A DNA stretch of 63,424 nucleotides, filler included, from Octopus bimaculoides (taxonomy: Eukaryota), in assembly GCF_001194135.2 (NCBI RefSeq). It is 8 parts of 8 records of this genome, joined end to end, with 100 filler letters (N's around TTAATTAATTAA, not from the genome) between each part and the next. Parts side by side here need not be neighbours in the genome. Positions count along the whole stretch, not along the records: positions 1 to 17,342 come from NC_069003.1; positions 17,443 to 31,139 come from NC_068985.1; positions 31,240 to 41,914 come from NC_068984.1; positions 42,015 to 47,386 come from NC_069001.1; positions 47,487 to 55,124 come from NC_068999.1; 3 more parts are not named here. One strand, given 5' to 3'. The notes beneath the pieces were generated by a model. The model searched no databases, had not been told where the DNA came from, and saw only the letters and a program-made list of their open reading frames with translations. Both the position numbers and the translations under genes were made by a program. Positions 2,188 to 55,070 of this stretch are shown here, piece after piece (within the stretch, counting starts at the first letter, position 1; each line of letters starts with the position of its first letter).

Positions 2188-2810
2188 TTATTTAAAAGAG
2201 TTCCAACTCTGTCTGGTTTTTATTTATGTTTTATTTGTATTCTTGTAAAATTAATGTGGGATATAGAATATGGAATATATAATATACAGTATAAAAATGG
2301 TAAAATGAAATGAAGTATTGAATGTCTTATTGAATATATGAAATATTGAGTATTCAATATAGAGAATTAAATATATAAAGGCTAATACGTATTTTCATAC
2401 CTAGTGGTATTCATCAAGGCCTTCGTCTGACAGACTGTAACAGACTGCTGTTTATTTGTCTTTTATACCTATTCCTTTGGACAGCAGCAGTAGGTGTTTA
2501 TTTTTAGAAATGATGACATTTGAGAGATTTTTTGTGTTTTAGTTATAGGGATAAGATTTTTAAACCCCAAGTAAGATAAATTTAATCATTGTTTGTTAAG
2601 AGTGGGTTTGAATTTCTTAATAAAGTCCTTTTCTTTGCGTTTTCTCTCAATTTCATTGAGGTTGTAAAGTTTATGGAATGGAAATATCATAAAAGTTTCA
2701 CGACCACATGTTGCCAGATGGTTACTCAGTGGTATTTGGCGGACTTCTGGGTTTTTAATCTGTTGTCGATGCACATGTGAGCGTTCCGATAGTGCATTAC
2801 CAAAAACCAC
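2181..2810 (-). mobile_element. Penelope-like element 3' end: GIY-YIG endonuclease C-terminus plus pseudo-LTR with hammerhead
   Basis: Minus ORF 2586-2888 ends RSHVHRQQIKNPEVRQIPLSNHLATCGRETFMIFPFHK...RKRKEKDFIKKFKPTLNKQ*, the typical PLE GIY-YIG C-terminal pattern (E..FI...KP.LN). A hammerhead motif follows in the same orientation. Confidence 0.8.
2377..2424 (-). ncRNA. Minimal type-I hammerhead ribozyme motif (core CUUGAUGA)
   Basis: Minus strand GAAGGC CUUGAUGA AUACC ACUA GGUAU GAAA AUACGUAUU A/GCCUUU: 6-bp stem I, 5-bp stem II, palindromic stem III, UUA cleavage triplet. Confidence 0.75.
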
Positions 2811-2962
2811 TACTCCTCCACTATTAACACCACCTCCCACACGTTTGAAATAATACTGTTTATTCTCAAATGATTTTTTTGAGATCAAAATGATTTTTTA
2901 TAGAAGACACAATCTGTCGGGGTGGTTGAACAATACAAACAACCAACACTAATTCTACTTGT

Positions 2963-3328
2963 GTGCAGGTATGGCTTTGTGGTAAGAAGCTTGCTTCTCA
3001 ACCACATGGTTCTGGGTTCAGTTCCACTGTGTCGTACCATAGGTTTCTGTCATCTACTGTAGTCCTAGGCTAACAAAAGATTTGTGAGTGGATTTGATAA
3101 ACAGAAACTGAAAGAAGCCCATCATGCGAGTGCATGTATATACTTGTCTTCCACCTCTGCTTGACAACCTCTGTGGGTTTGTTTACTGTAACTTTGTGGT
3201 TTAACAAAAAGAGACTGATAAAATAAGTATAGGTTTAAAAGGAAGTACTGGGGTTGATTTGTTTGACTAAATCCTTCAAGGCAGTGCTCAGCATGGTTGC
3301 AGTCCAATGACTGAAACCAATAAAATAA
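2963..3328 (+). mobile_element. SINE family A, diverged copy
   Basis: Same head, body and tail as 1658-2054. Confidence 0.8.
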
Positions 3329-3435
3329 AATTACATTTGCAGATGCAATATTTATACACATCATCAGCATCATATCCTGGAGTCACTGGAAGTTTTGGGT
3401 CTTACAACAAACACCTACTTCTATGGATATATATA

Positions 3436-3483
<48 letters not shown>

Positions 3484-4321
3484 NNNNNNNNNNNNNNNNN
3501 NNNNNNNNNNNNNNNNNNNNNNNNNNNNNNNNNNNNNNNNNNNNNNNNNNNNNNNNNNNNNNNNNNNNNNNNNNNNNNNNNNNNNNNNNNNNNNNNNNNN
3601 NNNNNNNNNNNNNNNNNNNNNNNNNNNNNNNNNNNNNNNNNNNNNNNNNNNNNNNNNNNNNNNNNNNNNNNNNNNNNNNNNNNNNNNNNNNNNNNNNNNN
3701 NNNNNNNNNNNNNNNNNNNNNNNNNNNNNNNNNNNNNNNNNNNNNNNNNNNNNNNNNNNNNNNNNNNNNNNNNNNNNNNNNNNNNNNNNNNNNNNNNNNN
3801 NNNNNNNNNNNNNNNNNNNNNNNNNNNNNNNNNNNNNNNNNNNNNNNNNNNNNNNNNNNNNNNNNNNNNNNNNNNNNNNNNNNNNNNNNNNNNNNNNNNN
3901 NNNNNNNNNNNNNNNNNNNNNNNNNNNNNNNNNNNNNNNNNNNNNNNNNNNNNNNNNNNNNNNNNNNNNNNNNNNNNNNNNNNNNNNNNNNNNNNNNNNN
4001 NNNNNNNNNNNNNNNNNNNNNNNNNNNNNNNNNNNNNNNNNNNNNNNNNNNNNNNNNNNNNNNNNNNNNNNNNNNNNNNNNNNNNNNNNNNNNNNNNNNN
4101 NNNNNNNNNNNNNNNNNNNNNNNNNNNNNNNNNNNNNNNNNNNNNATGAGTGAGGTGGTGTTAATAGTGTTTGCCTTAATAAACATGCATCTATGTTCAT
4201 ACACTTCTCTCTGTCTCCCTCTTCTTCTCCCACACCATCAAACCTTAGTCTGATACCAATAGCATTGTTGCAACTACTCTAGCATACATCTGTTGTACTC
4301 ACACACGCAAATACCAAAAGC

Positions 4322-4360
<39 letters not shown>

Positions 4361-4677
4361 CATGCACATATCAGACAAAAAAAACAAGTGTTCTAGATAA
4401 ACATGCATTCATTCAAACATTCACATATAAATACATGAATTTACGTACACACATTCACCGATCATCCATACACACAGTCACTCATACATGCATCTTAATG
4501 TTTGTGCATATACAACAGGTAATAATACACATGTATTCACAAGCACAGACACAGACACACTCACACAACTAATCACATACACACACACACACACACACAC
4601 GTTATATAGCACAACTGTTGCATGCAACTAATAGCATAAATTCAGCTGATATACATCTAAATATTCAAGCAAGCAGA

Positions 4678-52009: not shown

Positions 52010-52610
52010 TGGCAATTCACTGCAAACCCACCATATTTTCATATAAACACTTCCTTCATGTAGCCATGCAATTTAAATTAACGTTTAATTAACTTTTTGA
52101 TCCCTTCAGAAATTAATCCCTATTATAATCTCTGCGTTTACTCATACGGAACTCTGACATCAATATTGTTTTACCAATGTTCTTTTAACGTAAACCTTCA
52201 ATATTAGCACGTTAGCACCTCCTTCCTGTAACCATCTTCAGATAGAAATGCAGTTTCAGTCAACCTTTAATTATTTTTTTAATGATGTTAATTACTTAAT
52301 CCATATTATATTCATTCCATGTACTCATACAAAGTTGCGACAGTTATGCAGTTTTTACAATACACATTCAGTGCAAACTGCTCACATTTGTTGAATATTA
52401 GCTCATGTTCACGTCGCTAGGCAATTTAAATCACACTTTCAATTATCGTTTTAATCCCTTCAGAATGTAATCCATATTCTATTCTCTGTTTTTACTCATG
52501 CCGATTTGCAACATTCACACAGTTTCTACAATATCCAGTCACTGCAAACCTCCAATGTTCGCATGTTAGCACTTCCTTCACGTAACCATCTGAAGATGGC
52601 CAATTTTCTA
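52010..52610 (+). repeat. Degenerate tandem array of 170-183-bp units
   Basis: aatcc(c/a)tatt..actcat anchors at 52115, 52298 and 52469; gttagcac at about 52211 and 52565. Confidence 0.7.
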
Positions 52611-52698
52611 AATCCACTCGGCAGGCAATACTACGACAAACATCATTCAGGCATTCAATTTCAGCCTGCTCTACTTTCGCTTCTCGGATAACCCTGCA

Positions 52699-53755
52699 AT
52701 GCCAACTAGGAGAAAGAGAGCTCAGGTTGTTAGACTTCCTATGCTGCCGTCAAAGCCAGAACATATCGCATAACGAAATGATGACCAGAAGTCCCACAGA
52801 CTGTCCCGGCAGACTGCCTCCGATACAGCTGCCCATGCAGTACACGCACCTGCAACCCCTGTAGATTATAAGTCTTCAAAGTTTGAAGAAGTTCTGGCTT
52901 CTCGAACCCGTCATGCTACAACTCTTGCTGTATGTCAGGGCTACCGAATCATCTCAACAATGCACTATTCGTTTGTCACGTACTGCCAAACGCAATTCAG
53001 CCGCAAGGGGTACTGAGTCACCTCAACAAGATCTATTCATCACGTGTAATGCAAAATGTGATGAGATTACAGAAAACCTCCTCCCAGGAGAACGACCTAC
53101 CGATTGCCACGAAATCATCATCAGTGTTTTCTCCATAAAGATCCGTACAAAGACTGATTTTTTCAAAAAGGTGAAATTTGTTGATCTACTCATTGTTTCA
53201 TGTATACTTTCCAGTGGCAAACAAGGGATCTGCCGTATGCACATATCTTATATTTGCTGGTTAAAAAAGGCGATCAACTTCCAAGTATACCGCTATTAGA
53301 GCAAATTTGCAGACACTACAGACGATCATCTTCGACATCATTTAATATGACATAGTTTACCAACCATGTGCACATTAAAATATAAAGACACTCTGTATGG
53401 AAAGTGACAAATGTCCAAAAGGATACCCCCGTTAGCTACAAACTGAAACACAGACAAGCGACGACGGGTATCCTATTTATCAACGACGAGCTCCCGCACA
53501 AGGTGGGTTCATNNNNNNNNNNCCCAGGAATTCTGTAAAAATCCATATGTTACTTTGGAAATACACTATCAAAGTTTCGGACAGAGTCTTCATTCAAATA
53601 GAATCTACACCATCAAAGAGATGATTCTCTTAAAACCTGGAGGCTACGCATCTATTGGTGATTCCCAATTCAAGAACGATACCATCCTATGATACATCTC
53701 AACGTCCACCAGGAAAATACGCTGCGAAATTCCTTCAGGGAAGACAATCTCCAAA
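52699..53755 (+). pseudogene. Helitron RepHel remnant (Rep/HUH domain)
   Basis: DLFITCNAKCDEITENLLPGE (motif 1), QWQTRDLPYAHIL (motif 2, His to Tyr), PC...CMESDKCPKGYP, DGYPIYQRR and FPIQERYHPMIHLNVH. Confidence 0.85.
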
Positions 53756-53759
53756 TACA

Positions 53760-53905
53760 GTTCTATATATAAGAGACGAGGAATTATATACATTATTTAC
53801 ATTATTTTCAATTGACGGTTATTTGTCATCATCTTGTTTGTTGTTAATACAACATTTTGGTTAATATACCCTCCAGCCTTCACCCGTTGTCTTGCGGATT
53901 TTTCG
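53760..53905 (-). mobile_element. PLE pseudo-LTR fragment with heavily mutated hammerhead (53846-53891)
   Basis: Homologous to 54925-55075. Confidence 0.6.
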
Positions 53906-54924
53906 ATGTTGTTGTTGTTGTCGTGTGTGTGTGTATGTGTTTGTGCGTGCATATATATATANNNNNNNNNNNNNNNNNNNNNNNNNNNNNNNNNNNNNNN
54001 NNNNNNNNNNNNNNNNNNNNNNNNNNNNNNNNNNNNNNNNNNNNNNNNNNNNNNNNNNNNNNNNNNNNNNNNNNNNNNNNNNNNNNNNNNNNNNNNNNNN
54101 NNNNNNNNNNNNNNNNNNNNNNNNNNNNNNNTCATACCTACATAATTACATGTCACTGTATAGTTAAGGAAACCCATCGTTGTTAAATTCAGTTTAGCTT
54201 AATGGGCAAAATATATCTTACAGAATATTCGAATTTGCAAACCTTTTTTCATATTTATATCCTATTTATATCCTATTTTCTGTTTTTTTCAATAATCTAA
54301 ATCTTTTGGCATTGTTAGTTTATATGTTAATATTTTCGTTTAACATACTGGTTTGTTGTTTACTTCTTCACAGAATCTTTCATTACATTTCTCCCAATTT
54401 AGAAGCGTGCGTGCAGTGTTTTGTTTTCGAAACGTGTTTAATGAAGCAATTTAACATTCAATTTTATTTTCTCCATCTCCGAAGTTATCTACATACGGTG
54501 AATATGACATTTTAAATGTGATATTTTAATTGAATATATATATTTAAATTCACATGTTGTACAAGATATAAACACTTTAATGAATATTCTATAGCAGTGT
54601 TGGTAGAGGGGCGTAACATATTAGTGTATGTTCATTGACAGAAAACGAAGGTAAATATATGAGACAGCTGAATGAACGGTTTTATAAAAAAGATATTCAC
54701 AACATAATATATTTCTTCTCGTACATGATCATTAACACCGACGTGGTAAGCAGAAGAACAACTTAATTTGACATATAGGTAGACGAAATTCAGTTATTTA
54801 TATTTAAAAGATATTGTTTGAAAGACAAATCTGTCTTCTGAGATATAAGCACGAAATCGTTTTCCTCTAAATGAATGGAATGTGTCTTCTCTTTCAACAA
54901 ACGCTGTGATACAGTTCTACATTT

Positions 54925-55070
54925 AAGAGATGAGGAATTATGTACATTATTTTCATGTCCTCATCTTGTTTGTTGTTAACACAGCGTTTCAGTTGATATA
55001 ACCTCCAGCCTTCATCAGGTGTCTTGGGGAAATTTCGAAGCTGTGTTCTCATTGCTGAGGTATTGTTCGA

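Follow-up and report, generated by a model that had tools for sequence, protein, structure and literature searches.

The window analysed here, a stretch of 63,424 nucleotides from the microsatellite-rich, 2.34 Gb genome of Octopus bimaculoides, carries minimal hammerhead ribozyme motifs that belong, with little room for doubt, to Penelope-like elements (PLEs). The sites fall in three of its eight stretches (1-17342, 17443-31139 and 47487-55124). An earlier note had named nine sequences, and all nine are present where it placed them, with the self-complementary stem III that it described: the palindromes are 4-10 nt long, and their predicted duplexes range from -1.7 to -11.1 kcal/mol. Stems I, II and III meet in a three-way junction that opens at stem I, which is the type I topology. 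Among the six sites at which such a fold had been reported, those at 2377, 18172 and 29333 are intact, those at 17721 and 53846 are decayed, and the one at 54978 carries C instead of U at 16.1, together with mismatches in stem II. The three partial sites are two decayed copies, at 28340-28380 (plus strand) and 30261-30294 (minus strand), and a 3′ half only, at 30189-30206 (minus strand). At least five retroelement families had been claimed; at least six PLE families are supported here.

A strict descriptor, which tolerates up to one core change or a single insertion after C3 and requires UH, a palindromic stem III and 4 bp or more in each of stems I and II, finds exactly three intact motifs in the window, at 2377-2424 (minus strand), 18172-18220 (plus strand) and 29333-29369 (minus strand), compared with a mean of 0.13 in 30 dinucleotide shuffles. 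A similar descriptor gave 14 matches in a 697 kb evenly spaced sample of the genome, eight of them canonical, three A6U and three single oddities, and none in eight shuffles of that sample. At roughly one intact motif in every 50 kb, such motifs are common in the genome; the descriptor under-counts them, having missed an intact family F copy in locus L339. An Rfam scan of the window had no hammerhead among the best 150 of 218 weak matches, all of those listed being microsatellite noise.

The canonical core (C3 U4 G5 A6 N7 G8 A9) is kept by families D and E, and departed from by families B (U4C), C (A6U), and A and F (an extra base after C3, family A being polymorphic). Families A, B, C and F are hammerhead variants, not members of the consensus. 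Family A is represented by the hammerhead at 2377-2424 (minus strand; predicted cut after 2383), with the 8-nt core CUUGAUGA and the stem III palindrome AAUACGUAUU. It lies 168 nt downstream of a C-terminal remnant of the family's GIY-YIG endonuclease (EN) at 2589-2798 (minus strand), which is 94% identical over 70 aa to the open reading frame (ORF) of locus L125. That ORF comprises reverse transcriptase (RT), linker and EN, and matches Pfam GIY-YIG at 5.8e-7.

A CX2-5CxxC linker before GIY-YIG is the signature of the Neptune (or Nematis) clade, and a CxCX5C linker before a C-terminal EN is that of the Hydra clade (PMC8557442). In a test of families A, F and C, the first of these linkers was present in loci L125 and L177. 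We take these three families to be Neptune-type, a label under which Neptune and Nematis are not separated by a tree. RT with GIY-YIG at the C terminus lies upstream of the pseudo-long terminal repeat (pseudo-LTR) in family A and in the clade of family C, where locus L341 joins a U6 hammerhead without a gap to RT, a CxxC-type linker and GIY-YIG. For family F the link, to an A-like ORF that is 86% identical, is made only across an assembly N gap (locus L234). For family B it consists of the EN only: the hammerhead lies 0.6-0.9 kb downstream of an EN with a CxCX5C linker, the EN being found in four independent loci and the linker as one CxCX5C match in locus L120, with CxxC near the end of the EN in the same translation. 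The family B RT, in which RWK and DKT motifs would mark the Hydra clade, was not recovered from the loci examined, and Pfam did not recognise the family B EN, the RT fragment or the EN remnant in the window. The PLE origin proposed in the earlier note is thus borne out for families A, B and C by linkage to RT and/or GIY-YIG. Families D and E have a PLE-type layout only (inverted truncated copies, microsatellite borders), with no linked ORF in 25 family D loci or 20 family E loci.

The features of EN-bearing PLEs are present, namely variable 5′ truncation, an inverted copy at the 5′ end and microsatellite targets. A second copy on the opposite strand within 1.5 kb was found in 8/30 loci of family B, 8/25 of D and 1/45 of C. 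Non-LTR retrozymes, which were considered as another source, consist of tandem units of 170-400 nt with a hammerhead in each and no ORF. The present motifs do not answer to this description: a second copy on the same strand within 1.5 kb occurs in only 4/100 loci (2/45 for C, 2/25 for D and 0/30 for B), and ORFs are linked to families A, B and C. As a separate observation, sample loci L311, L320, L324, L342 and L268 contain other type I hammerheads with canonical cores, longer-stemmed and possibly retrozymes.

Copy numbers were obtained with genome-wide patterns blind to the core, and the core shares given below were tallied by hand from the first 100 matches in genome order. Family B is present in the window as a Hydra-type pseudo-LTR at 18059-18293 (plus strand). 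Its hammerhead, at 18172-18220 (plus strand; predicted cut after 18216), has the core CCGAUGA, a mismatched A.A pair at the base of stem II and the palindrome ACAGCUGU. An inverted, truncated copy of the pseudo-LTR lies at 17649-17880 (minus strand), with its decayed hammerhead at 17721-17769. There are 359 copies in the genome; CCGAUGA is found in 92/100 of those listed and the canonical core in 1/100, and exact canonical copies of the motif number nine genome-wide. U4C is therefore the consensus of this family and not private decay. The copies are about 94-97% alike. On sequence grounds family B is young, and a single master copy therefore suffices to explain U4C. This favours a neutral founder effect, in which the ribozyme would be dispensable and a core damaged in a master copy would have hitch-hiked through bursts of retrotransposition. 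The Naiad PLEs fit such an account, since they thrive without canonical hammerheads, and it has been suggested that hammerheads may parasitize PLEs (PMC8557442). Families A and F and the A6U clade, described next, speak against it.

Families A and F are sisters that have their 3′ end in common but differ in their palindromes and entirely in stem II. In the window family F is a stub at 30132-30214 (minus strand), broken off at a (TA)n repeat that has replaced the 5′ half of the hammerhead and left only the 3′ half (30189-30206). Its consensus core, CAUGACGA, has an extra A after C3 and is found in all 16 parsed copies, four of 20 loci being unparsable. Since C and G8 are invariant and the extra base is variable (U, A, rarely C), this base may sit as a bulge after C3. 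Stem II covaries in the clade with the insertion: a pattern covering 8-nt cores only found 41 copies, 36 of them with CUUGAUGA, and these have AUGC/GCAU (25), AUAC/GUAU (15) or a mixed pair (1). Compensatory changes are seen in stems II and III between families A and F. The extra-base core is thus a family-level state in both families, and the compensatory changes beside the insertion speak against a dispensable passenger. At locus L309:4079 (minus strand) there is also a canonical-core hammerhead with stems II and III nearly those of family F and a different, 6-bp stem I.

Family C has a 5′-truncated, Neptune-type pseudo-LTR at 29246-29486 (minus strand), containing a hammerhead at 29333-29369 (minus strand; predicted cut after 29338) with the core CUGUUGA (A6U; clade consensus CUGUNGA) and the palindrome ACGU. 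Among its 4,386 copies, CUGUUGA is found in 97/100, U6 in 98/100 and the canonical core in none of the 100 listed. A sister group with a 4-nt loop has 3,712 copies, with U6 in 97/100, A6 in 0/100 and exact CUGUNGA in 74/100 of those listed, N7 being G in 38, U in 37, C in 15 and A in 10. Together these put A6U in over 8,000 copies (4,386 + 3,712) of the Neptune-type clade, and it is a clade-level state, not private decay. In a tree built without the core and loop, from 55 of 64 rows after thinning of near-identical family C copies, the U6 copies split from canonical A6 sister families on a starred branch. Stem I covaries between the two, with compensatory changes, and the genome contains 1,168 canonical motifs that share the stem II of the U6 clade. 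Canonical cores inside the U6 clade (loci L159, L179 and L180, chosen for that core) look like sporadic single-copy changes. The A6U pattern had no match in metagenome contigs, a collection unlikely to contain this animal. Contigs labelled organisms B and C, which may or may not be other species, have the family C motif without a single difference and are left out of the evidence.

The clusters with A6U number at least six, their flank consensuses are 9-28% apart, and A6U has persisted through them while changes occurred at N7, H17 and loop II, which is not what a founder effect would lead one to expect. In 66 copies of the U6 clade, only N7 and H17, of the 14 ribozyme positions that were not search anchors, have a second allele at 15% or more; GAAA was a search anchor for family C, and its conservation, like that of the other anchor positions, lies outside this test. 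Of the 40 loci behind this test and the cluster comparison, 20 were hand-picked for rarer cores, which inflates minor alleles at position 4. Positions 7 and 17 are the two that are free in canonical hammerheads. The chance of picking exactly this pair at random is 1 in 91. U16.1 and H17 are each kept in 84/85 copies of the clade, G17 occurring in 1/85. A separate observation concerns locus L178 (G000:C1:189908000-189911000), which has a chimeric hammerhead, its 5′ half from a canonical sister family and its 3′ half from family C; this suggests template switching or recombination at stem II.

It could be argued that each variant is decay private to one copy, or that the motifs arose by chance. 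Decay is the case for the window copies of families D and E and for the copy at 17721. Family D, which serves as a canonical control, has hammerheads at 54978-55023 and at 53846-53891 (both minus strand), the latter heavily decayed. Its core is CUGAUGA, and among 8,291 copies CUGANGA is found in 85/100, U4C in 4/100 and A6U in 1/100 of those listed. Family E is a fold-back insertion at 28142-28548 with 195-nt arms and a decayed hammerhead at the inversion junction (28340-28380, plus strand); its consensus has the canonical core CUGAUGA and the palindrome ACAUGU. The motifs at 54978, 53846 and 28340 are decayed members of canonical families. For families A, B, C and F the same argument is refuted by the genome-wide counts and the shuffles, and it is very improbable there. 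That U4C, A6U and the insertion after C3 are family states is close to certain. A seventh motif, G, is decayed in the window at 30261-30300 (minus strand). It is known from two copies, the other being intact in locus L224 and having CCGAUGA, a second U4C core. In L224 the intact motif G adjoins a family F stub, in the same layout as in the window.

Folding predictions bear on what the altered cores do. The dimeric hammerhead is the predicted minimum-energy cofold for three of seven motifs, those of A, B and F. A6U makes U4-G5-U6 complementary to the palindrome side A15.1-C15.2-G16.2, which gives a predicted rod in the monomer. Over 20 distinct U6 motifs the predicted pairing probability averages 0.82 for U6:A15.1 and 0.84 for G5:C15.2, the latter against 0.04 in 16 A6 motifs, in which mean probabilities for the rod pairs are 0.00-0.04. 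This high pairing agrees with an explanation in which the fold is kept without cutting, as an RNA structure recognised by the RT-EN protein of the element. The amplification of a subfamily with U4A as well as A6U agrees with it too, as does the finding, in the available part of a study of a PLE from Anolis, that cleavage is dispensable for insertion in vitro (PMC11167929). However, C3, G8, A9 and U16.1 are fixed in 90-98% of copies, and H17 avoids G, even though a G there could extend the rod by pairing with C3. In addition, the rod leaves U4C and the insertion clade unexplained. We consider this explanation unlikely, though the likeliest of the alternatives; the founder effect ranks after it and is likewise unlikely.

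On the basis of these observations, we hypothesise, with a probability of about 0.5, that the motifs are the 5′-truncated ends of at least six PLE families, in four of which most or nearly all copies inherited an altered core, and that the variants are slow ribozymes predicted to cut only with help. The help would come from the element's own protein, or from another copy that pairs with the first by way of the palindrome. A6U may hold a single copy in the inactive rod until a partner or the protein opens it. Selection would then still act on the cleavage-competent fold, with cleavage weak and conditional, and the odds that residual cleavage is under selection appear evenly balanced. Solo genomic stubs in host transcripts would mostly stay uncut. 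Slow, conditional cleavage is favoured over a protein-binding structure or a dead passenger on the strength of published activities and the predicted folds.

Several findings weigh against this hypothesis. Family A is polymorphic: its 21 parsed motifs, from 20 of 30 loci in a set that favours window-like copies, include 13 with an extra U, three with an extra A and five with a 7-nt core. The flank of the U6 clade is also conserved (14/62 columns polymorphic), so that the core is not significantly more constrained (Fisher p 0.11), which again favours the founder effect. The double variant CAGUUGA (U4A + A6U) has also spread, to 5/100 of the listed copies of the sister group and to 4/6 in one cluster, the latter from the comparison with hand-picked loci. 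For C, D, E and G the minimum-energy fold is something other than the dimeric hammerhead, and in C and D the palindrome ACGU yields a duplex of only about -1.7 kcal/mol. In a saturation study every single mutant of the CUGA turn was low in activity (PMC9901934). Finally, catalytic mutants of the Anolis PLE hammerhead left insertion in vitro unaffected, according to the part of that study available (PMC11167929), so dead cores could amplify. The CAGUUGA subfamily was located in loci L200, L378, L379 and L382, and makes up about 3-6% of RNA reads.

The RNA reads point the same way, though weakly. On family C, 2,925 and 2,979 reads were placed from two RNA runs; their depth is greatest across the predicted site, and their ends pile up only at the edge of the stretch (29246). 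Family B gave 497 and 238 reads, none ending at the predicted site. The libraries are of fragmented cDNA, and near-equal mate orientations suggest that they are unstranded, so this is a weak test. No A6 allele was seen among 40 of 43 read differences listed on family C. About 40% of the family B reads differ at U16.1, a further point against a working ribozyme. The same reads differ in stem II (window 18199-18215), which points to expression from a subfamily or locus with further changes. Also present are reads from a canonical sister of family B that has another stem II. The earlier note had proposed a search for RNA 5′ ends at the predicted sites and, should the variants be family consensus, had expected introns and intergenic transcripts to contain many sites of self-cleavage. 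Reads of families B and C provide no such ends, in libraries that are a poor test of them, and the expectation of many active sites in host transcripts is without support, because same-strand neighbours occur in only 4/100 loci.

A bolder proposal is that PLE lineages repeatedly evolved detuned cores. A6U would then be an adaptive safety catch, folding the catalytic strand onto the palindrome so that thousands of solo copies in host transcripts stay uncut, with only the element's protein or a tandem partner (possibly with Mn2+) switching cleavage on. This is doubtful, and we place it below the alternatives of a bound structure and a founder effect. If it were true, CUGUNGA, CCGANGA and C-X-UGANGA would be natural cores that work, and every search with a fixed core would have passed them over. 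More generally, should the variants cut, descriptors are too narrow for the natural core consensus, and animal hammerheads are going unnoticed in sizeable proportion (A6U accounts for 3/14 sample matches); if they do not, PLEs can reach thousands of copies with a dead ribozyme. PLE hammerheads have been proposed to act in RNA processing, shown to be dispensable for insertion in vitro, and suggested to be parasites. Because variant and canonical sister families share the same stems here, their function is directly testable in this genome.

Other features of the window may be mentioned. A 363-aa open frame at 14547-15635 (plus strand) resembles, by eye, the apurinic/apyrimidinic (AP) endonuclease of a non-LTR retrotransposon. 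An open stretch at 8999-9319 (plus strand) looks like a G protein-coupled receptor's final transmembrane helix and tail, and a fragment at 59880-60149 (plus strand) like a mariner-type transposase, again by eye. Self-BLAST of the window identified dispersed copies of a repeat like a short interspersed element (SINE) at 1655-2053, 2963-3330, 19768-20172, 29602-30023 and 43605-43982, and a second dispersed family at 5557-6045, 6700-6965, 42209-42690 and 47051-47386.

Leaving aside Lünse et al. (2017), the literature searched contained no account of A6U, U4C or an insertion after C3 as a family-wide state of PLE hammerheads; PMC11014351 and bioRxiv 10.64898/2026.07.22.740005, so far as consulted, contributed nothing further. 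The variants of Lünse, Weinberg & Breaker (2017), so far as an excerpt of a review describes them (PMC6765202), resemble those here in their short stem III and PLE association, and they cleave as dimers. Natural core variants elsewhere include A6C in phage Bcep176, U4C in a viroid and 2a/2b insertions in saltern DNA; the A6C and U4C hammerheads have low but detectable activity, and A6C prefers Mn2+ (Perreault, 2011, PMC3088659; Naghdi, 2020, PMC7151607). The changes are at the same places as here (4, 6 and next to C3). However, those variants are rare, some with stabilising tertiary contacts, whereas the changes here have become fixed in animal retroelements whose stems are minimal and whose copies number from hundreds to thousands. 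The sections examined of those two papers list neither A6U nor the insertion of one base between C3 and U4. The Poseidon element PAc of Anolis provides a model for protein-assisted cleavage, since its hammerhead cleaves only with the element's protein (Frangieh, 2024, PMC11167929, in the part available). As here, this is a PLE hammerhead without RNA-seq ends at its site. It differs in belonging to another PLE clade and in having C3 and G8 conserved, the same part mentioning no altered core.

The closest known system is the minimal hammerhead (min-HHR) of metazoan PLEs, which lies in pseudo-LTRs and cleaves weakly, as a dimer (Cervera & De la Peña, 2014, PMC4209133). On the evidence of the sections of that paper available, the octopus motifs share with it the type I topology, a short stem I, the absence of loop-loop contacts, the palindromic stem III, an unpaired base between 9 and 10.1, the predominance of solo truncated copies, low predicted activity and inverted pairs 100-700 bp apart. 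They differ in the core. The min-HHR consensus is CUGANGAH and the core variant given in those sections is U3-A8, unlike A6U, U4C or the insertion, and U4 and A6 are found in all the rows examined of the 56-motif alignment of its figure S3. The descriptor used in that survey, as set out there, fixed the core, and the variant families would therefore have escaped it. Of the features in the earlier note, the unpaired base next to stem II and the palindromes of stem III are not new, both being described in that paper, and the hammerhead class itself was known as well; A6U, U4C and the extra base after C3, as family-wide core variants, are provisionally new.

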